Of a stretch of 64,000 bases of DNA, positions 10,783 through 52,887 are shown piece by piece (position 1 is the first letter of the stretch; each line of letters starts with the position of its first letter). Location: the IMG/VR virus record IMGVR_UViG_3300031555_004294, positions 128,001-192,000 of that record; one strand, written 5' to 3'. The DNA is from a virus. Lineage: Duplodnaviria > Caudoviricetes. The notes under the pieces are model-generated. The model saw nothing but the letters and a program-made list of their open reading frames with translations. It searched no databases and had not been told where the DNA came from. The position numbers and the translations under genes are program-made.

Positions 10783-11953
10783 TTGAAAATAGATATTTGT
10801 AATCTGGACAAATTTATAAAGGTTAACAACATACAAGAAGTTACTAACCCTATACGTTTTGATGCAGATTGGTACCCAACTGATAATGGTCTTTTATCAT
10901 ATAGAATTTTTGGTCAAGTTGGTAGTTATGATAGACGTACTTTATTTGGTTACATCGACCTAAAAGGACACTTTTTACACCCATTATTTTATTTGAGACT
11001 CATAAAAATGAATCGTAATTTTGCTAGAGTCATTGATGGTAGTGGCTATTTTAGAATTAACGAAAAAGGTGAGTTAGTTGCTGATAATGAGAATGGAAAT
11101 ACTGGAATAGCTTGGCTTTATAAGAATTTCAAAAATCTTAAGTTTAAAAAATCGGGTTCAGGAGAGCGAGACAGGACTATAGACCTTCTAACTAAACTTG
11201 ATCTTGATGAAATCTTTGTCAGCAAGTGGCTTGTAATTCCTGCCTTTTATCGAGATTCTAATATACAAAAACTCGATCATGGAAGAGTTTCAGAAGATGA
11301 AATCAACCCTATGTATGCAAATTTGATTTCTCTGGCAAGTTCTAAATCAGATTTCGACTTTATGGGATATATTACGGAATCTAGAATTCAAAAACAGCTT
11401 TTAGAAATCTATGATTACTTGACTGGATATATCAAGGGTAAGACTGGACTTCTCAAGAATAGTTTGCTCGGCAAGACTGTGGACTATTCAACTCGCGGTG
11501 TTATCTCAGCAGGTAGAGTCAATTCTAATACATCAGATGAACAATTGGTAAAGTTTACTTATACTGGCATTCCTTTATCTCATTTGTGTAACTTATTCTA
11601 TCCTTTCTTCCAATACGAGATAGCTAGTTTTGCAGAAGAAACCTTTGCATCAGTTAATGAAATTAGGGGTTCTGATGGAAATTATTATCCATTGGTAAAT
11701 CCTATGAGTAAATTTACAACTGAAAAGATAAAAGGGATGATGAACTTATATATTAAGTCACCTGATAATAGACTTGATCCAATCATGGTTCCAATTAGGC
11801 TTAAGAATGGAAGTGTTAAAGAAGTTCCTTTAAATCTCTTCCAAGATGATTTAAAGAGACACTTTACTTTACTGGACTTGATATACATTGTTGCAACTAG
11901 AGTTTGTCTTGACAAACATGTGTATGTAACTCGATTTCCGATTGAAAACTATC
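10783..11953 (+). CDS. rpoC: RNA polymerase beta' N-terminal subunit (probably virion RNAP), exon 1
   Basis: GLLSYRIFG, FGYIDL, VIPAFYR, GKTGLLKNSLLGKTVDYSTRGVIS, TRFP; joins exon 2 in frame (ENY-Q-SIYP), 510 aa total. Confidence 0.92.
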
Positions 11954-12453
11954 GTGTGTCACGTTGATCTATAACTTGAAAGAATCAAGGAAATGATCGA
12001 TATAAGTATACTTATGTTAACTGTAAGTTTGATTGGTGGAATGAAATACGGCAATCAGTATGAAACACCAACATTAATACTCCTACATGCATTAAAAAAT
12101 AGCTAGAATTATTTAATGTGTGAAGCTAGGTGAAGACGTATTCATAGTAATGCGGATGGTTCTATAATATGGTGAGGAACACGAATTTTCTAACGTCCAA
12201 TGTTTTGGGATTAGTAGTATGATAGTGGCGAAAATCCTATTGAATGATGCTTCAATTGAAAATATTGGGAACAGAAAACACCTAAGTTATAGAAATACTA
12301 GAATTTACGGAACGTGAGAAGTTTCTATAAAAAGAAAATAGCTGATACTTTTTATAGAAATGGCAGCAGCCTGTAGTAGCGATGAAGCTTTTGTAATGAA
12401 AGTGGAGTGAAGGGGCATAGTCAATTTTTTGATTGAACTTTTTCTAACGATCA

Positions 12454-12465
12454 AACAATTTATTA
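12454..12465 (+). promoter_or_regulatory. late-type promoter inside intron domain IV
   Basis: AACAATTTATTA followed by AAAGGAG RBS and ATG 12493. Confidence 0.6.
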
Positions 12466-12492
12466 AATACTTTTACAAAGGAGATTAATAAA

Positions 12493-13416
12493 ATGGGTAG
12501 AAAAAGTAAATCACATGAAGATTTTGTTAAAGATGTTATGAATATTTTAGGACCAGAATATCAAGTGCTGGGAAAATATATCAAATGTTCTGAAAAAATA
12601 AAAATGAAACATTTAAAATGTGGATTAGAATATGAAACTGAACCTAGAACTGTAATGCATGGATCAGGATGTCCAATATGCAATACCGATTTTCATATGT
12701 CACATGATGAATTCGTTTCAAAAGTAAATAAAGAGGGAGATAACGAATATGAAGTCCTAACTCCTTATATCAATACAAAAACAAAAGTAACGCTAAAACA
12801 TAAAGTGTGTAATGAAATTTATGAAGTTGCACCTAGAAATTTCTTTCAAGGTAAAAGATGTCCAAAATGTACTAAAGTAAAACGTGTGACAAATGAAGAA
12901 TTTGATCGACGTCTGTTAAACATTTATGGAAATGAATGGACTAGAGTTTCAGAGTTTATGGCAATAAATAAGGAAATTCTAGTTAAACACGAAAATTGTG
13001 GGAACATAATTAAGAATACTCCAAAAGTTATTTTAAGTCAAAGATTTGGATGTAAATATTGTAAGATGACTAGCGGAGAATTTAGAATTAAATCTGTTTT
13101 AGAAAACTTAGATATAAAATTTACCCCACAAAAGAAGTTTGATGATTGTAAAGATCTAGGTTACTTATTTTTTGACTTTTATTTTTGTATTGACAATAAA
13201 GAGTATATCATAGAATATGATGGACGACAACATTTTCTTCCTATTTTTGGTCATAATGATAAAGAACGACAAGAACGTTTAGAATTTACGCAAAAACATG
13301 ATGAGATGAAAAATTTATATTGCGAAAACCATAATATAAATTTGCTGCGTATATCATATGATACTCCCTATCAGAATATTCAATCAATAATTGAAAACTT
13401 CATAAAGAAAAATTGA
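12493..13416 (+). CDS. intron-encoded putative homing endonuclease (3 zinc-ribbon repeats + Vsr/DUF559-like PD-(D/E)xK domain)
   Basis: HxxC...CPxC repeats; FDFY...IEYDGRQH...DEMKN...LLRISY; no RT/YADD motif. Confidence 0.8.
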   Translation: MGRKSKSHEDFVKDVMNILGPEYQVLGKYIKCSEKIKMKHLKCGLEYETEPRTVMHGSGCPICNTDFHMSHDEFVSKVNKEGDNEYEVLTPYINTKTKVTLKHKVCNEIYEVAPRNFFQGKRCPKCTKVKRVTNEEFDRRLLNIYGNEWTRVSEFMAINKEILVKHENCGNIIKNTPKVILSQRFGCKYCKMTSGEFRIKSVLENLDIKFTPQKKFDDCKDLGYLFFDFYFCIDNKEYIIEYDGRQHFLPIFGHNDKERQERLEFTQKHDEMKNLYCENHNINLLRISYDTPYQNIQSIIENFIKKN

Positions 13417-13503
13417 TGGAACGCTGTGTGAGGTGAAAGTCTCACGCACAGTGTGAAGTGGGGGAAAAAATAGAGATAACTTCAAAGTTTTACCTATCAC
13501 TAT

Positions 13504-13865
13504 AATCAATCTATCCAAGCCGTATAAAAATAATGACTACTTACAAGACTCAAAAAATAACAATTGCTAACAAGTATTATGACAATTATCCTGTAGTTAC
13601 TACAGATTTTGATAGTCCTAGTTATGATGAAAACATGAACTATATCGATACCATAATTCCCCATAATACGATGTTGGAAGCCTTGGGTGCAGACTTTGAC
13701 GGAGACACGGTTTCTTTAAGATCTGTCTATTCACAAGAAGCAAACTTAGAATGTGAGAAACTAATAAACTCACCTAAGTATCTTTTAGATGTAACAGGAA
13801 AAACTACTAGAGTTTTGCGTAACGAAGGTATTCAAACTCTTTATACTTTAACAAGAGAAGGTTAA
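13504..13865 (+). CDS. rpoC: RNA polymerase beta' N-terminal subunit, exon 2 (catalytic motif)
   Basis: LGADFDGDT Mg-binding motif; frame continues from exon 1. Confidence 0.92.
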
Positions 13866-15013: not shown

Positions 15014-15493
15014 TCAAATTAGTTTCTCAGCTTTTAAAATTTCTAAAATTCTTTCTACATGGTTTTCTTTATATGTGATTCTGTAAAGTCTTATTTTATG
15101 TTTCTTACAGTAATCGTTCTTTATAGCATCATTGGTCAATGTATTTTGAAAGTTTTCTAATTTCTGTTCCTCACTTAATCCAAAACAAGGTTTATAATGT
15201 TGAACTCCATCATACTCAACTAGGAAAAATCCTTTCGTAGTATAGATACAGAAGTCAAATGGTAATTTTCTATGATTGTAGCATTCATTAAAAATTTTCT
15301 CTTGGTCGTATTTGATATGAAATGCATCTAGTATTGCAATGATGTCTTTCATAGGTTTTGATACTTTTGGATTGATACCTTTCTTTGCAAAGCTGTTGAT
15401 CAGAGTATTAGATATGGAAAATTCGCCATCTATTATCTTTGCAGTATCTAAGGTATTTCTTAAAAATCCACCAAGTTTATTAAAGAAACCCAT
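15014..15493 (-). CDS. free-standing Vsr/DUF559-like endonuclease, homologous to the intron ORF C-terminus
   Basis: LPFDFC...VEYDGVQH...DAIKN...LYRITY; late promoter AACAAGTACTTA at 15520-15531. Confidence 0.75.
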   Translation of the reverse strand: MGFFNKLGGFLRNTLDTAKIIDGEFSISNTLINSFAKKGINPKVSKPMKDIIAILDAFHIKYDQEKIFNECYNHRKLPFDFCIYTTKGFFLVEYDGVQHYKPCFGLSEEQKLENFQNTLTNDAIKNDYCKKHKIRLYRITYKENHVERILEILKAEKLI

Positions 15494-21577: not shown

Positions 21578-23224
21578 ATGGAAAATATTTTAAACAATGA
21601 AGATTTAAGAGAAAATGTAACTGTTTTAGATGATACTTTGAATGAAACTATGAATAATAAGCTGCAGACAACTACCGATAATACTGTTACTGCAGGTAAT
21701 GTGGTTAATGCCATGCTACAAGCTAAAATGATTAATGACAATACCCATCAATATGTAGAAACAACTACTACTCCTCATATTGAAATTCCCAATCAACAAC
21801 AGTATGTAACTAAAATTCCTGGTAATATTGAAGGTATGAATATAGTTACTCCTTTAGTTAAAGAAGGAATGGCTGCACCTAAAACTATTGACCTATCAGA
21901 CCTACCTATGGATGATGATGCTTCATATAGTTCTGTTTTAGGAAACTTAGATGATGAGCCTCTTACAACTTATGCAGATGACCTTTCAATGAGAGGAAAT
22001 AACAATACAAATGTACACTATCATACAGAGTTAGAAGGATTAAACAACGATCCTGTTCCTACAGTTAAGAACGAACTTGATTTTGGTGTAAACTTTAGTG
22101 CTGAAGAGATTGACTTTTCTAAGGATGCTAACACTACTGAATTTAGTGCAGAGGATGCATTAACTGAAGATGTCATTAAGCAGTCTAAAGATGAGGAAAA
22201 CTACATTTACCATTCATATGCAGACCAGAAGATTTCTCATAGAGGAAACAATTCTAAGCTGTCTTTCTTGGATAAAATCTCTGTAGATTTAAAGGATGTT
22301 ACGATTACAAAGAAGTCTCCAATCGAACAGGTTGAAGATATCAACGCTATGTTTAACAATAACATTGCAACATTTACAGTTACTTGCTGTCAATCTGGTT
22401 ACTGGGCTTCTATGTCTGGTTTAACTTTAGCAGAGAAGAATGCAATTAACAATTCTGATGGTGGTTCTATCTTCCAGTTCAGACAGAAATTGTATCATAC
22501 TGTTTATAACAAGATTCAGGCAATGTCTATTCCTAAGCCTAACTTCAATAACTGGCTGAAGATCACTTCTTTCAATGACTTGGCAACACTGTTATTCGGT
22601 ATCTATTGTCAGACATTCATTGACAATAACGATTTCGATATTACTTGTGGTAAGTGCGGTAAGACAACTTCTGTAACTGTTAACAATCAGTCTTTAGTAG
22701 AAGTTAGAGATCGTTCTGTATTTGAAAAGCGTGATGAAATTATTGGCACTATTGAGAATGGTGAACAGTTAGTAGCAAATTCCATTGTCCATAAGGATGA
22801 GCGTATCATGCTAAACGAAAGTAAGATCATTGTAGATGTAGCTACTCCTTCTTTACATGACCATCTAACTTTACTACAGTCTTCTAAGCAAGAGACTTTA
22901 CAGGAATACGCAGATACTTTCTCTGCAATGTTGTTTATCAGTCATCTTTATATGTTGAACATTAGAGAGACTTATAATACTGGTAAGCCTGCTTACTATG
23001 AAATTGATGATAAGGCTAGACTACTTAACATTCTTCTCAAGCTTTCTAACAATGATGGTGAACAGTTAGAAAATGCTATTCAGGAAAAACTTGGAAAGTA
23101 CCAGATTAATTACGAAATTCACAATGTAACTTGTTCTCATTGTAAGTCTCAGCTACCTGGTATTCCAGTTGATATGGAAAACATCCTTTTTACACGTCTA
23201 AACAGGACGAACACGGAGAGGTAA
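21578..23224 (+). CDS. baseplate hub / tail assembly chaperone (T4 gp26/gp51-like C-terminal region)
   Basis: two CxxC pairs (CGKC, CSHC), next to gp25-like gene; late promoter at 21520-21531. Confidence 0.55.
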   Translation: MENILNNEDLRENVTVLDDTLNETMNNKLQTTTDNTVTAGNVVNAMLQAKMINDNTHQYVETTTTPHIEIPNQQQYVTKIPGNIEGMNIVTPLVKEGMAAPKTIDLSDLPMDDDASYSSVLGNLDDEPLTTYADDLSMRGNNNTNVHYHTELEGLNNDPVPTVKNELDFGVNFSAEEIDFSKDANTTEFSAEDALTEDVIKQSKDEENYIYHSYADQKISHRGNNSKLSFLDKISVDLKDVTITKKSPIEQVEDINAMFNNNIATFTVTCCQSGYWASMSGLTLAEKNAINNSDGGSIFQFRQKLYHTVYNKIQAMSIPKPNFNNWLKITSFNDLATLLFGIYCQTFIDNNDFDITCGKCGKTTSVTVNNQSLVEVRDRSVFEKRDEIIGTIENGEQLVANSIVHKDERIMLNESKIIVDVATPSLHDHLTLLQSSKQETLQEYADTFSAMLFISHLYMLNIRETYNTGKPAYYEIDDKARLLNILLKLSNNDGEQLENAIQEKLGKYQINYEIHNVTCSHCKSQLPGIPVDMENILFTRLNRTNTER

Positions 23225-23460
23225 GTTATAAACTTTCAAGAGCTAGTGACTCTGATTTTATAGTTTCCGTACTTGACCTGTTTAGTGGACAGATGTCATT
23301 AACAGAAGTTCTAAATTCTGAAATAGCAGTTCTTAAAGAATTGTGTGAAGCAAGAACTAAGTTACTTGAAGAAAAAGAGAAAGCTAAAGCAAAGGCAATG
23401 TCAAAAATTGAAAATGACAGAGCTTATAACGACTTGAATAAAATTTACAACCAACGTTAA
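23173..23460 (+). CDS. -1 frame extension / small tail chaperone ORF
   Basis: Not in track. -1 frame open from 23173 to TAA at 23460 (...LDLFSGQMSLTEVLNSEIAVLKELCEARTKLLEE...). Confidence 0.55.
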   Translation, partial: YGKHPFYTSKQDEHGEVSYKLSRASDSDFIVSVLDLFSGQMSLTEVLNSEIAVLKELCEARTKLLEEKEKAKAKAMSKIENDRAYNDLNKIYNQR

Positions 23461-23541
23461 AATTTCATTTACTATTTTACACCTTTCTGTAAAAGTTTTA
23501 TTGATGATGAAAATGCTAATTACAGAAAGTCAGGTGATTGT

Positions 23542-23886
23542 GTGAATCCATACTTAAAAAAATTTAAGAGTCTAACAACTTGGATTACTGATGATAGAGT
23601 TGAGAACTTATTAGAGGGAACTTTATATCTAAAAGAAGCTTTCAAATTTATCGAGTTACTTTTAGTGCTTGATGAGAATAATTTTGAGTATGAGCTTGTT
23701 TCTGGATTTAAAGGAAAGACTCATTTTAAAGAAGAACAGAATATGTTCAAGGATATCGTTATAGAAGTGTCTGAACAAGAATTAAGAAATGTAGTTGAGT
23801 TTTTTAACAGTTCTGTAAAGTATAATGAAACTTTTAGCGTACAAGAATTATCAAACACAAATCTAAAGATTCAACTAAGGGACTGA
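23542..23886 (+). CDS. hypothetical protein
   Basis: GTG start with AGGTGA RBS. Confidence 0.65.
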   Translation: MNPYLKKFKSLTTWITDDRVENLLEGTLYLKEAFKFIELLLVLDENNFEYELVSGFKGKTHFKEEQNMFKDIVIEVSEQELRNVVEFFNSSVKYNETFSVQELSNTNLKIQLRD

Positions 23887-27608: not shown

Positions 27609-28730
27609 ATGGGAAAAGCAGTACTTATTGTAGGTGGAACATTTGACAGATTTGGTGGTAAGAAGTCTGGTCTCATTGAAAAGATCTATCAGTCAATCGA
27701 TTACAAAAAGTTTGACTATGATATTGTAGCTTGTCGTAATGGCGGCAACGTCGAAGATCTTAATGAAGAACTTGAATTTACAAAGGAATTTGATATTGTA
27801 CTTTGGATGCCGAATGTATCAAATGATGAAGTAAAGATTAGAAATGTGAAGGAAGTGAATCCTAAGACAATTTTGATCTCTTCAAAAAGAAATGACAATA
27901 ACAAGTACAACTTTGCAGAACTTATTTCAAGAGCACTTGAACTCAAATCTAACCTTACAATCGAGTTTAGCAAAGTTGAGGAAAATAATTGTTTCAACAT
28001 GAGAGTTTTTGATCCGCTTGGAAACCAATTCTACAATGGAACTGATGTTGAAACGATGGTTAACAAACTCTTTAAGAGAGCTGGAGAATTAGCAGAATTC
28101 ACAAGAAAACCTACCATTCCAGTTAACAGTAACGATAGAATTCCTGAAGTACCAGATGAAGAAGAATTTTTTGCATTTGCAAGAAATTGTTCTGATATTT
28201 TCCACAATCTAATTAATCCTGCTGCAGGTACTACACGTTTCTTAGGAAATATGAGTTTCCGTTGTCAAAATGGATTTCCTTCTTTCCGTGGAGAAGATGG
28301 ACTTATCTTTGTAAGTCGTAGAAATGTAGATAAGAGACAGATTACAAAAGAATCATTTGTTCCTACTTATCTCGATGAAGATGAAAATGTTAGGTACTAT
28401 GGAGATGCAAAGCCTTCAGTTGATACACCAGTTCAACTCAGACTCTATAAGAAATTCCCTCAGATGAACTATATGATTCATGCTCATTGTTATGCTAATA
28501 CTATTTTACTAACAGAACATCCAGTTCCTTGTGGTGCAATTGAAGAGGTAGATGAAATTGAATCTGTGGTTAAAAATTCAATGGATGCTGAATTTATTGC
28601 AATCAATTTGATTGGTCATGGTTGTATTCTTATGACAAAAGATGTAAAATATTTTACAAGACTCATGAAATATAAAAAGTATAAGGATAATTGTTTTGTA
28701 AAGAGAAATATACCAGAAGTTTTCTTTTAA
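27609..28730 (+). CDS. class II aldolase/adducin-like domain protein
   Basis: GNMSFR, KPSVDT, HAH, GHG. Confidence 0.7.
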   Translation: MGKAVLIVGGTFDRFGGKKSGLIEKIYQSIDYKKFDYDIVACRNGGNVEDLNEELEFTKEFDIVLWMPNVSNDEVKIRNVKEVNPKTILISSKRNDNNKYNFAELISRALELKSNLTIEFSKVEENNCFNMRVFDPLGNQFYNGTDVETMVNKLFKRAGELAEFTRKPTIPVNSNDRIPEVPDEEEFFAFARNCSDIFHNLINPAAGTTRFLGNMSFRCQNGFPSFRGEDGLIFVSRRNVDKRQITKESFVPTYLDEDENVRYYGDAKPSVDTPVQLRLYKKFPQMNYMIHAHCYANTILLTEHPVPCGAIEEVDEIESVVKNSMDAEFIAINLIGHGCILMTKDVKYFTRLMKYKKYKDNCFVKRNIPEVFF

Positions 28731-28745
28731 AAAGGAATTTTGAAA

Positions 28746-29231
28746 ATGAAAAAGCTAACAAAGAAACAAATATTCGATCTTCAACTTAACTATACATGGA
28801 TAACAAAACTGTGTGGTGATGAGTGGTGGAATGATTGGCAGAAATGGAGAGCTGTATCCTATCTTAACTTATCTGATGATTTCATAAGAGAGTTCAAAGA
28901 TAACTTAAGTTGGTTTGAGCTTACAAGAAACCACCAATTTACTCTTGAAACAGTAAGAGAATTCCAAGATTATATACATTGGGATACTCTGTCAAGAATG
29001 AGAATATCGGAAGATATCATAAGAGAATTTCAAGATAAATTGAACTGGCAATTTATTTCTACCTACCAAGATTTATCAGAAAATTTCATAATGGAGTTCA
29101 AAGATAAAGTTCAATGGGATGAGATTTATGTCAATCAAAATTGTTCTAAAGAATTCTGGCAAAAGACAAGTGAATACTGGATGCCATATTTTGAACATCT
29201 TAAACACAGACGAAAGGACGAATTAAGATGA
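28746..29231 (+). CDS. tryptophan-repeat protein
   Basis: LTKKQIFDL; repeats. Confidence 0.85.
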   Translation: MKKLTKKQIFDLQLNYTWITKLCGDEWWNDWQKWRAVSYLNLSDDFIREFKDNLSWFELTRNHQFTLETVREFQDYIHWDTLSRMRISEDIIREFQDKLNWQFISTYQDLSENFIMEFKDKVQWDEIYVNQNCSKEFWQKTSEYWMPYFEHLKHRRKDELR

Positions 29232-29755
29232 AGACTAAACTAACCAAACAACAGATATTTGATTTGCAGTTCAAATATGATATAAAGGCTACACCATCTA
29301 TAATGAAAAAGAAAAATTGGTGGAATCATATAGAATATTGGAGGTGGATATTTGATACTAAAAGTTCTTCTATTCCAGAAGAATTTTTTCGTATGTATAT
29401 TAATGTTATAGATGAATTAGGAGGTTATTATTGGGAGATTATATCACGACAAGCAATATTTTCTGAAGACTTTATAAGAGAATTCCAAGATAAAGTTTAT
29501 TGGGAGGGGGTTTCATCTATTCCAAATTTATCTGAAGACTTTATAAGAGAATTCCAAGATAAAGTTGATTGGTTTGAAATTTCTTCCACTCAAAATTTAT
29601 CTGAAGACTTTATAAGAGAATTCCAAGATAAAGTTTATTGGTGGAAAATTTTTGATTGTCAGACTTTATCAGATGAATTTATTGAAGAGTTTAAAGACAA
29701 ATATATTGACGAGGACGACGAATTTGATGATTTTTTAGAAGATGATGACTACTAA
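29228..29755 (+). CDS. tryptophan-repeat protein
   Basis: LTKQQIFDL; three DNA-identical 36-bp repeat cores, 69-bp period. Confidence 0.85.
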   Translation: MKTKLTKQQIFDLQFKYDIKATPSIMKKKNWWNHIEYWRWIFDTKSSSIPEEFFRMYINVIDELGGYYWEIISRQAIFSEDFIREFQDKVYWEGVSSIPNLSEDFIREFQDKVDWFEISSTQNLSEDFIREFQDKVYWWKIFDCQTLSDEFIEEFKDKYIDEDDEFDDFLEDDDY

Positions 29756-29768
29756 AAGAGGTTTATAG

Positions 29769-30266
29769 ATGAAGACTAAACTAACTAATCAACAGATATT
29801 TGATTTACTTTTCAAGTATAACATACAAGCTACACCAAATATCATGAACAAGAAAAATTGGTGGAATCATAAAGAATACTGGAGTTGGATTATTGATAAC
29901 AAAACAGAACATTTTCCAGATGATTTTGTAGATGAATTTAAAGATGTTCTACTTGAAGTTGCAGATAGTTGGAATAATTGGCCATACATTTCTCATAAAC
30001 GATTGTCTGTACATACTATCAGAGTGTTTAAGGAATATGTTGATTGGAATGTCATTTCTAGCAGTTGTATTTTATCTGAAAATTTTATAAGAGAATTCAA
30101 AGATAGAGTTAACTGGATTTACATTTCTAGATGGCAGAATCTATCAGATGAGTTCATTGAAGAATTTAAGGACAGAATTAACTTTAACGCACTTGAAATT
30201 AATCCGTACTATACAATTAGAACTTTGATTAAAACTAACAAAAAAGAGGAATTAGAATTATGTTGA
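29769..30266 (+). CDS. tryptophan-repeat protein
   Basis: close paralog of 29228. Confidence 0.85.
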   Translation: MKTKLTNQQIFDLLFKYNIQATPNIMNKKNWWNHKEYWSWIIDNKTEHFPDDFVDEFKDVLLEVADSWNNWPYISHKRLSVHTIRVFKEYVDWNVISSSCILSENFIREFKDRVNWIYISRWQNLSDEFIEEFKDRINFNALEINPYYTIRTLIKTNKKEELELC

Positions 30267-51285: not shown

Positions 51286-52074
51286 ATGGTGAACTTAGTT
51301 TTGTCTAGAACTGTTAATGAAACAGAAAAGAAATATCTGCTATCTTTAAAACGATCAGATATTACTACAGAACTTTTAAAAGAGCTATTTGCAGTTAGTA
51401 AAAACAATCCAAAATCAAAGTTTGAGCCAACTGATATTTTACAGCTAAATGCTAAAGAATACTATAATGAGAAACTAGTTACAACTACTGTTGGTCGCTT
51501 CATAGTAAATAAATGTCTTCTAGAACCTAAAATTATTGAGTTGATTGGTTACCAAGATATCGTAATTACCAAAAAAACTATGAAAAAATTAGACCAAAAA
51601 ATCATAGACGAATGCTTATTAACTGAGAAAATTACTATGACTGAAATGCATGACTATTTCGACCAATGTAACTGGTTGGCATATAGTTGTACTTATTTTA
51701 TAGTACCTTCATTGGATACTAAGATGTTCAAAGTTGATAAAGACATTTTAGGCATGAAAGAAAAATTGATTGAGGAAAATAAAGAAGCAGTTCAAAATAA
51801 TGATGTTGGCGTTATTTATAACATTGAACAACAACTGTTAACAGCTTCTAAAGAAAAAGTAAAGGACATTCCTGGCTATCAAATCTATGCATCTGGTGCT
51901 AGAGGTAGTTTTGATAACAATTATAAGAACAGTTGCCTTTTAAGGGGTAGTGTAATGAACTTTACTAATCCTTCAGAATTCCAATCCTCAATGGCTTCAC
52001 TGGTAGAAGGAATTCCTAAAGAAGATTTCCACATCTATGCAAATATCTTAACTGCAGGTACTTATGCACGTGCT
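51286..52074 (+). CDS. rpoC: RNA polymerase beta' C-terminal subunit (probably virion RNAP), exon 1; true start may be TTG 51301
   Basis: TTVGRFIVN, SGARG, SLVEG, TYARA. Confidence 0.88.
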
Positions 52075-52292
52075 AAACTAGTGATTCTTGGCACGTAAAT
52101 TCTTTAATTGCTGGAAGAGTAGAAAATACTTAATCAGCATCTCATAAAAATTTTTATGAGTTCAACGACTATATAGAACTTAAATGAGTTCGAAATGAGA
52201 ATTACTAGTTTTTAGTAAAGATATAGTCTTATCTTTAGAGAGATCTAAAGTTATAAAGGATAGGCTTAATGAACCTATACAAAAATTTTATG
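52075..52292 (+). ncRNA. group I intron (IA-like), 218 nt, no ORF
   Basis: P1 CGTGCT/GGCACG with U-G at splice site; P10 GTGATTCTT/AAGAACAC; core AATTGCTGGAA, AATCAGCA, GTTCAACGACTA, AAGATATAGTC; terminal G. Confidence 0.92.
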
Positions 52293-52662
52293 AAGAACAC
52301 TGAGGTTGGTGGTTACTTAGTTAAGCAATCTCGTTCAGGCTATCAACATCTAATGTTAGATGAAAAGGATAGTGATTGTGGTACTACAAAGTATTTAGAG
52401 ATAGTTTTAACAGACAATAACAAAGGTCTGTTTATGCTAAGATGGATTAAAGGAGACGATGGTAAATTAGTTCTTCTTGATGCTGATAATGTTAATCAGT
52501 ATGTAGGAAAGAAAGTAAAATTACGTTCTCCTTTGTATTGTACAAGTGATAAGATTTGCAGTAAATGTGCTGGAGAACTCTATTACAGGCTCAACATGAA
52601 TAATGTTGGTCTAGTTGCTGACCGTATCGCAAGTACCATCATGCAGAAATCTATGAAACAGT
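52293..52662 (+). CDS. rpoC: RNA polymerase beta' C-terminal subunit, exon 2
   Basis: KNTEVGGYLVK (bridge helix), DCGT, LRSPLYC, ICSKCAG. Confidence 0.9.
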
Positions 52663-52887
52663 TAAAATCGTATAGCTGTTTACAAATTCTTAAGAATTGC
52701 TGGAAGAGTCATAATGACAAATCAGCAGCCTAATTAAGTTAGGTTCAACGACTAACATACTACAGGAATCTGTAGTTTGTATAAGAACATCTACTTTAAA
52801 GCGAGAAAAAGTAGTAAAGATATAGTCTGAACTTCTATGAAAATAGAAGAAAATGTTGTGTCTAATAAACACACTTAAACATAATTG
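52663..52887 (+). ncRNA. group I intron (IA-like), 225 nt, no ORF
   Basis: P1 AAACAGT/GCTGTTT with U-G; same P/Q/R/S core motifs; terminal G; splicing gives MKQ-F-HDS. Confidence 0.92.

Follow-up and report, generated by a model that had tools for sequence, protein, structure and literature searches.

The window analysed here is the whole stretch of 64,000 nucleotides that corresponds to bases 128001-192000 of the 299,070-base IMG/VR record IMGVR_UViG_3300031555_004294 (CheckV completeness 100%), the 299-kb genome of an uncultured jumbo phage of animal faeces origin. A gene for a virion RNA polymerase beta'-like N-terminal subunit is interrupted in this window by a complete group IIB intron, and domain IV of the intron holds the gene of an endonuclease of homing type. 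The interrupted gene is arranged as follows:

10783-11953, plus strand: exon 1 of the polymerase subunit gene, 390 codons plus one base, assigned to PHROG 2986
11954-13503, plus strand: complete group IIB intron of 1550 nt, delimited by matches to RF02004 and RF00029, an empty-site DNA contig and intron-less homologues
13504-13865, plus strand: exon 2, two bases followed by 119 codons and a stop, containing the ADFDGD catalytic motif and matching PHROG 2986 at positions 423-535

Exon 1 matches PHROG 2986 (RNA polymerase beta subunit) with an E value of 4.7e-84 at profile positions 8-421, and its reading frame reaches a stop four codons inside the intron. Exon 2 continues from position 423 of the same profile, so the exons are contiguous in it, and also gives a weak match to Pfam RNA_pol_Rpb1_2. 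When 11953 is joined to 13504, the product reads in frame as ...ENY-Q-SIYPSRIKIMTT (...ENY-Q-SIYPSRI...). A preliminary description of this DNA, made from its letters alone, had predicted that exact removal of the intron would restore the polymerase frame; it does, with an uninterrupted reading frame and a PHROG 2986 profile that abuts across the join. In eight sequenced jumbo phages (Goe21, BpSp, S6, PALS_2, SA1, UFV_DC4, Madawaska and LPJP1), one junction codon alone lies between the two exon matches, and these phages have no intron at this position.

Contigs from four animal-faeces DNA runs were compared with the region. One 369-nt contig of run X5 is identical to positions 11781-11953 (0 differences), continues after 11953 with eight other letters, and then follows 13512-13696 at approximately 81% identity. 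This contig is an intron-less DNA allele joined at the predicted 5' splice site, reading in frame as ...ENY-Q-S-L.... A 1189-nt contig of run X3 is identical to 11919-13107 and confirms the intron-bearing junction in a second run. A search for the locus with exon 1 alone returned only two distant loci, neither of which has intron matches.

Introns of this kind have been described by Merk, Jones and Eddy (NAR 2025, PMC12350094), who applied the same Rfam models to phage genomes, found 20 group II introns and also give matches in 9,229 IMG/VR contigs. Four of the 20 encode homing endonucleases instead of reverse transcriptases (RTs), and three of these four lie in virion RNA polymerase beta'-N genes, those of AR9, PBS1 and the Staphylococcus jumbo phage MarsHill. 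In these endonucleases, three to five domains, each some 60 aa long and with a distant relationship to CapR, DUF4379 and DUF723, precede a domain of about 100 aa that is distantly EDxHD/Vsr-like; homologous endonucleases occur in group I introns of the same genomes (PMC12350094). The parts of the ribozyme of the window, including intron-binding site 1 (IBS1) and exon-binding site 1 (EBS1), are:

11948-11953, plus strand: IBS1, ACTATC, formed by the final six bases of exon 1 and complementary to EBS1
11959-12317, plus strand: domain I, with closing stem 11959-11965/12311-12317, containing the RF02004 match at 12016-12166
12221-12226, plus strand: EBS1, GATAGT, in a hairpin loop of domain I, forming six base pairs with the exon end
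12321-12361, plus strand: domain II hairpin, a covarying helix (alignment columns 423-432/459-468)
12369-12416, plus strand: domain III, with covarying helices (columns 476-479/523-526, 486-487/517-518 and 496-500/508-513)
12421-13416, plus strand: domain IV, with basal stem 12421-12429/13408-13416 and a loop that holds the endonuclease gene
13421-13454, plus strand: domain V, whose CGC triad has a central G-U wobble, with an ACG bulge and a tetraloop GAAA, from the RF00029 alignment
13458-13500, plus strand: domain VI, in which the branch-point A, the eighth base from the 3' end (13496), is bulged, from the RF00029 alignment

At the Rfam gathering threshold, RF02004 (group-II-D1D4-5) matches 12016-12166 with 91.2 bits (E 2.9e-18), and RF00029 (domains V and VI) matches 13419-13503 with 56.6 bits (E 1.9e-8) against a gathering score of 40. 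These scores are far above chance expectation, and the RF00029 match ends at 13503, exactly the proposed 3' splice site. The intron begins with GTGTG (11954-11958), which fits the GUGYG consensus of the 5' boundary, and ends with ...CACTAT at 13503, which fits the 3' consensus AY. Class IIB introns are recognized in PMC12350094 by a 4-nt AARC bulge in the lambda-epsilon' region, and AAGC is found at 12123-12126 (columns 188-191), between the halves of a conserved helix. Domain V has the triad, the bulge and a GNRA loop, and domain VI has a bulged A within 7-8 nt of the 3' end. The basal stem of domain IV, in which TCAATTTTT (12421-12429) pairs with AAAAATTGA (13408-13416), appears in the fold of the intron from which the open reading frame (ORF) has been deleted. 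The anatomy claimed in the preliminary description (the GTGTG 5' end, the pairing of EBS1 GATAGT with the exon end ACTATC, a sole ORF in domain IV closed by the stem just given, a canonical domain V with CGC triad and bulge, and a domain VI ending in CACTAT) agrees with these results throughout, and the identity of the ribozyme as group II is supported both by the Rfam models named there as a check and by covariation.

The covariation was assessed in an alignment of domains I-III from ten introns: those of the window, AR9 and MarsHill, and seven metagenomic copies. The RNAalifold consensus contains 92 pairs, and 70 of the 92 have compensatory changes on both sides, which indicates selection on the RNA fold. 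Outside the aligned domains, the two strands of the domain IV stem vary together in AR9, L009, L012 and L014, and the basal helix of domain VI covaries among relatives (UGA/UCA, GGA/UCC, UCA/UGA and GCA/UGC). The intron ORF's eight nearest homologues from metagenomes share one layout, consisting of an ORF of approximately 390 aa, a gap of approximately 500 nt, an ORF of approximately 300 aa and an ORF of approximately 110-130 aa; all eight loci contain RF02004 and/or RF00029 matches.

Five of the metagenomic introns (starting at L009:2475, L011:2485, L012:796, L013:2373 and L014:288) are inserted in the same gene 15 nt, or five codons, upstream of where the window intron is inserted. At this upstream site, termed site B to distinguish it from the window's site A, the insertion follows ...VTRY in phase 1, after TATC, and is fitted by the EBS1 GGUAUC. 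Alignment column 314 holds EBS1 in each of the ten introns, and every EBS1 pairs with the end of its own exon. The window and L007 have GAUAGU/ACUAUC, AR9 has GGUACUG/CAGUAUC and the five site-B introns have GGUAUC/GAUAUC, with GUAGUC/GACUAC in L022, an ORF-less relative described below. The EBS1 pairing of MarsHill and L010 leaves exon base -1 unpaired. Over four different contexts, the EBS1 pairing changes along with the exon. As regards EBS3 and delta, the base on the 5' side of EBS1 does not follow the first base of exon 2, and the lone candidate column for EBS3 (249), with U at site A and G at site B, offers a single change only. Several EBS2 candidates seen in single sequences, such as UUCAAUU/GAUUGAA in the window, were unconvincing; they sit in a hairpin that has an exon-like sequence on its opposite strand.

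Within domain IV, two features were identified:

12454-12465, plus strand: AACA-N6-TA motif AACAATTTATTA, which has the late promoter consensus of AR9 type and lies 39 nt ahead of the endonuclease start codon ATG
12493-13416, plus strand: homing endonuclease gene, 307 aa, with three zinc-ribbon repeats (residues ~8-190) and a Vsr/EDxHD-like nuclease domain (residues 192-307)

The 307-aa product matches PHROG 559 (E 2e-72), PHROG 9084 'homing endonuclease' and PHROG 7140 'intron encoded nuclease', as well as the treble-clef zinc finger family DUF4379 of Pfam (E 1.3e-6), with weak matches to DUF5889, DUF2726 and DUF559; its homologues carry matches to PF14311, PF05265 and PF21817. Each of the three repeats has the pattern H-x2-C...C-x2-C, and the nuclease domain contains the motif EYDGRQH. 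Among 25 aligned homologues, zinc-ligand cysteines are conserved in all three repeats, and D228, E241, G244, H247, D270 and K273 are invariant; five of these residues (D228, E241, H247, D270 and K273) are candidate catalytic residues and may be equivalent to the EDxHD motif.

An AlphaFold (AF2) model built on the 25-homologue alignment (mean predicted local distance difference test score 89.7) contains a helix-plus-strand module three times over and, after these, an alpha/beta domain. Residues 192-307 of the model superimpose on Vsr (1cw0) with a Z score of 12.7 and a root-mean-square deviation of 2.1 A over 108 residues, and on the catalytic domain of I-Bth0305I (3r3p) with a Z score of 12.1 and a deviation of 2.5 A over 93 of 97 residues at 22% identity; these two rank above other PD-(D/E)xK folds in the list of structure comparisons. 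HMMER searches of PDB chains with the endonuclease alone or with the 25-sequence profile gave weak zinc-finger matches only, and none to 3r3p or Vsr. The whole model searched with Foldseek reached a best E value of 0.002, diluted by the multi-domain shape. The predicted nuclease domain thus has the length of about 100 aa and the Vsr/I-Bth0305I fold of the domain described in PMC12350094, and the three repeats correspond to the N-terminal domains given there, which number three to five, measure about 60 aa each and are relatives of CapR, DUF4379 or DUF723. These zinc-ribbon modules probably recognize a long DNA site. The preliminary description had read the ORF as a Vsr/PD-(D/E)xK-type nuclease with three zinc-ribbon repeats and an EYDGxQH motif, and this reading is borne out by the family matches, by the motif in the 307-aa ORF and by the Z scores of about 12 for the modelled fold.

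The AACA-N6-TA motif is the late promoter consensus of AR9, a culturable phage of Bacillus subtilis for which infection RNA-seq exists (PMC5312081). Ten of 11 related introns have it at a distance of 33-41 nt ahead of the endonuclease ATG; its background frequency is 0.001 per nt, or approximately 0.04 expected per 40-nt span, and in the window it is followed by a Shine-Dalgarno sequence, AAAGGAG, at 12478-12484. The conserved motif and the Shine-Dalgarno sequence point to late transcription of the endonuclease gene on its own account, and the endonuclease is probably transcribed separately, late in infection. The endonuclease ORF of MarsHill (L002:3065-4045) and of L007 (1718-2677) leaves domain IV and continues into domain V; for most of the other members, the stop is a TGA in the domain IV stem, within its 3' strand or shortly past it (...TTGATGGAA).

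Neither an RT model nor a maturase model matches the intron ORF. The preliminary description had stated as much for the ORF, and its statement now extends to the genome, since RVT_1 and GIIM have no match anywhere in the 299 kb. A group II retroelement is recognized by an intron-encoded RT with X/maturase domains, and here the sole intron ORF belongs to endonuclease families; no other group II intron is present in the genome. We infer that the intron splices without a maturase.

The window intron is a diverged member of the set found in AR9, PBS1 and MarsHill. The gene and the codon of insertion are the same and the ribozyme and endonuclease are homologous, so the element is not new in kind, and both its kind and its position in the gene were already published in 2025. 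As in AR9 and MarsHill, insertion is in phase 1 after the Tyr or Phe codon of ...PIE(N/Q)(Y/F); Rfam matches are found in L001 (AR9) and L002 (MarsHill), with both RF02004 and RF00029 in the AR9 intron; the window endonuclease has the same architecture as AR9 gp146 (40% identity) and the MarsHill protein (33% identity); and the window phage, like the phages of this set, has endonuclease paralogues beside group I introns. In contrast, nucleotide identity to the AR9 intron is 71% over only 47% of the intron (Blastn), the host genes are approximately 40% identical in amino acid sequence, and the AR9 gene has a downstream group I intron whereas the window gene has none. The DNA of AR9 and PBS1 contains dU. 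No mention was seen in PMC12350094 of the sister lineage 15 nt upstream, of an ORF-less relative in another RNA polymerase gene, of repeated divergence of the 3' exon flank only, or of a late-promoter motif of AR9 type that is conserved ahead of the endonuclease gene.

More distant parallels exist. Earlier group II introns with LAGLIDADG or GIY-YIG endonucleases, including the LAGLIDADG case of Mullineux et al. 2010, are cited in PMC12350094; they too have an endonuclease rather than an RT in domain IV, and both DNA homing and maturase-independent splicing have been proposed for them, but the endonuclease family of the window is unrelated (zinc ribbons with a Vsr-like fold) and its host is a bacteriophage protein gene. 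I-Bth0305I, of the EDxHD group, shares the nuclease fold and the modular plan of a nuclease tethered to extended DNA-binding modules (PMC3943268), whereas HMMER finds no significant sequence match, the likeness to the window protein is one of fold, the N-terminal modules of the window protein are zinc ribbons like those of CapR, DUF4379 and DUF723, and the element that carries it in the window is an intron of group II. The canonical group IIB introns of bacteria share the 5' GUGYG, the AARC bulge, the EBS1/IBS1 pairing, the triad of domain V, the branch-point A of domain VI and the 3' AY; they differ in that the window intron and the rest of its genome lack RT, X/maturase and En domains and EBS2 is not identifiable.

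Several comparisons bear on how the intron moves. AR9, which has the intron, and Goe21, which does not, are 98.1% identical in exon 1 (1165 nt) and 83.8% identical in exon 2 (185 nt), and identity returns to 97.7% in exon 3. MarsHill, with the intron, and Madawaska, without it, are 99.6% identical in exon 1 (1161 nt) and 92.8% identical in exon 2 (194 nt). The window and the X5 contig are 100% identical in exon 1 (173 nt) and approximately 80% identical in exon 2 (193 nt). In all three independent comparisons, the break in identity coincides exactly with the insertion site (diverged stretches at window 13504-13696, L001 4834-5018 and L002 4079-4272). Co-conversion during repair of a DNA break would leave a diverged 3' flank of this kind, and if co-conversion took place, the endonuclease is predicted to cut downstream of the insertion point. 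The exon-1 protein tree interleaves the two insertion-site classes, and its well-supported branches force at least two changes of class, whereas one split of the insertion site would suffice for the endonuclease tree; both trees are small, and the exon-1 tree was made without L006, L012 and L014, in which exon 1 is truncated. This disagreement fits horizontal movement. Goe21 (L015) has neither of the introns of the AR9 gene, and Madawaska (L016) lacks the group II intron and keeps the downstream intron with its endonuclease, which indicates that the two introns were gained or lost independently.

The intron is very probably a mobile element of mixed type, which splices from the polymerase mRNA as a group II ribozyme, carries an endonuclease in domain IV where an RT would be, and spreads by homing into DNA breaks. 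The ribozyme (domains I-III, V and VI) would excise itself from the late mRNA so that an intact polymerase subunit is made. Domain IV would carry, in place of an RT/maturase gene, a homing endonuclease gene with its own late promoter and ribosome-binding site, whose product would consist of three CapR/DUF4379-like zinc-ribbon modules tethered to a Vsr/EDxHD-like PD-(D/E)xK nuclease. If an intron-less relative infected the same cell, its empty allele would be cut by the endonuclease, and repair off the intron-bearing genome would copy the intron together with adjacent exon sequence, mostly on the 3' side. Homing at the DNA level had been put forward in the preliminary description, and it fits the intron-less alleles in close relatives and in the same metagenomes, the mosaic exon flank and the discordant trees.

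Several points weigh against this reading. The intron-less allele of run X5 is one contig with a depth of 2.9 and may be an assembly chimera. For EBS2/IBS2 and EBS3/IBS3, no column or exon offset common to the family was found. Divergence of the 3' flank could reflect selection for cleavage-resistant targets as an alternative to co-conversion, and in AR9 and MarsHill it could be confounded by the neighbouring group I intron with its own endonuclease. The authors of PMC12350094 state that they did not confirm splicing by experiment, and cleavage by the endonuclease is a prediction.

The changes of insertion site raise another explanation, that the intron moves mainly by retrohoming with an RT/maturase acting in trans, supplied by the host or by a co-resident element, and that domain IV was invaded by the endonuclease as a passenger. 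At least two changes of site have taken place in the ribozyme lineage (site B and L022), and in every case the intron ends are exact and EBS1 fits the exon, which break repair alone explains poorly; trans-acting RTs have been proposed for the ORF-less introns of phage LPJP1 (PMC12350094). Retrohoming as the main route is nevertheless very unlikely: no RT/maturase was found in the phage genome, nearly all copies are at two sites of one gene as endonuclease homing predicts, the endonuclease is intact with its catalytic residues conserved in every copy, and retrohoming does not yield mosaic 3' exon flanks, which are a mark of DNA recombination.

It is very unlikely that the intron is an immobile, vertically inherited relic whose endonuclease is kept as a maturase-like splicing helper or purely as a weapon that cuts the polymerase gene of competitors. 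A phage without a maturase may need some splicing helper, and a precedent for the weapon is PhiPA3 gp210 (Birkholz et al. 2024, PMC11620839), an intron endonuclease that resembles the one described here in being borne by a virion RNA polymerase gene of a jumbo phage. It targets the intron-less allele of relatives and impairs co-infecting PhiKZ, showing the potential of such an element in phage competition (PMC11620839), but it is an HNH nuclease that nicks DNA, in contrast to the Vsr-like domain of the window, and belongs to an unrelated lineage (Pseudomonas, nucleus-forming). By analogy with PhiPA3, the endonuclease of the window could serve as a weapon against intron-less competitors; such a role is compatible with homing and is no true alternative to it. 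Phages that are 98-100% identical in exon 1 differ in the presence of the intron, and the trees of host gene and endonuclease disagree, which together indicate recent horizontal movement rather than a relic.

A split gene that is never spliced, with its parts translated as separate polymerase fragments, would have precedent in the natural splits of jumbo-phage RNA polymerase genes at other positions (PMC7598289) and a possible start in the ATG at 13533, ten codons into exon 2, but is extremely improbable given that no Shine-Dalgarno sequence was seen before 13533, that the break falls inside a conserved block just upstream of ADFDGD that is contiguous in all intron-less homologues, and that the 70 compensatory pair changes reflect selection on the RNA fold.

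Homing by the endonuclease and occasional relocation by the ribozyme may have operated in the same family. In L022 (6151-6667, minus strand), a relative of approximately 517 nt with no ORF (nhmmer E 2.9e-42 against the alignment of domains I-III; RF00029 66.8 bits) is inserted in another gene, at a point 31 codons short of the stop; this gene matches phrog_23439 'hydrolase' and phrog_3233 'RNA polymerase beta subunit'. A scan of a viral collection for the domain I motif had returned six loci, one being the AR9 record (251,042 bases) and one L022; the remaining four were chance matches. With site A, site B and this third site, the family occupies three places, each with exact intron ends and an EBS1 that fits the local exon. 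The exact ends and matching EBS1 at the new sites would be explained more easily by reverse splicing than by break repair. The two site positions in AR9 form a near-repeat, GGTATC and AGTATC, and a single EBS1 could read both sites of the AR9 beta'-N gene as a direct repeat, (G)GTATC ... (A)GTATC. Tentatively, and with considerable doubt, the ribozyme may still set which sites are permitted and the family may have relocated by reverse splicing, while the endonuclease homes between alleles. If true, this would be an RT-less phage intron with two modes of mobility, endonuclease homing and rare jumps guided by the ribozyme.

With the window intron, the few group II introns published so far with a homing endonuclease in place of the RT are joined by a complete but diverged one from a gut-associated, uncultured jumbo phage, and with ten collected relatives the family becomes big enough for covariation analysis. 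The empty alleles, the divergence of 3' flanks beside near-identical 5' flanks and the discordant trees are the first signs at the sequence level that such introns move as DNA, and the ribozyme lineage has changed sites with the match between EBS1 and exon retained. Practical use is limited to annotation, where this essential polymerase gene is split by gene callers and its endonuclease is given the name 'HNH' or 'group I intron'.

Other introns and nuclease paralogues are present in the genome, which has seven RF00028 (group I intron) matches in total. Two of these, found in the genome-level search at window positions 52037-52250 and 52603-52849 (57.1 and 56.3 bits), were missed by the whole-window Rfam pass, and a narrower re-scan recovered the second only. 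They lie in or beside another RNA polymerase subunit gene, pieces of which at 51286-52098 and 52269-52733 match phrog_2962 at positions 30-295 and 295-416. On the minus strand at 15014-15493, 1.5 kb downstream of the group II intron, a free-standing ORF of 159 aa consists of the Vsr-like nuclease domain alone (PHROG 559, 9084 and 7140); this paralogue of the intron-encoded protein has no zinc-ribbon modules. The nuclease domain has two more paralogues (37-41% identity), at genome positions 23262-23582 (minus strand) and 29676-29996 (plus strand), which adjoin group I intron matches at 23086-23271 and 28634-28833.

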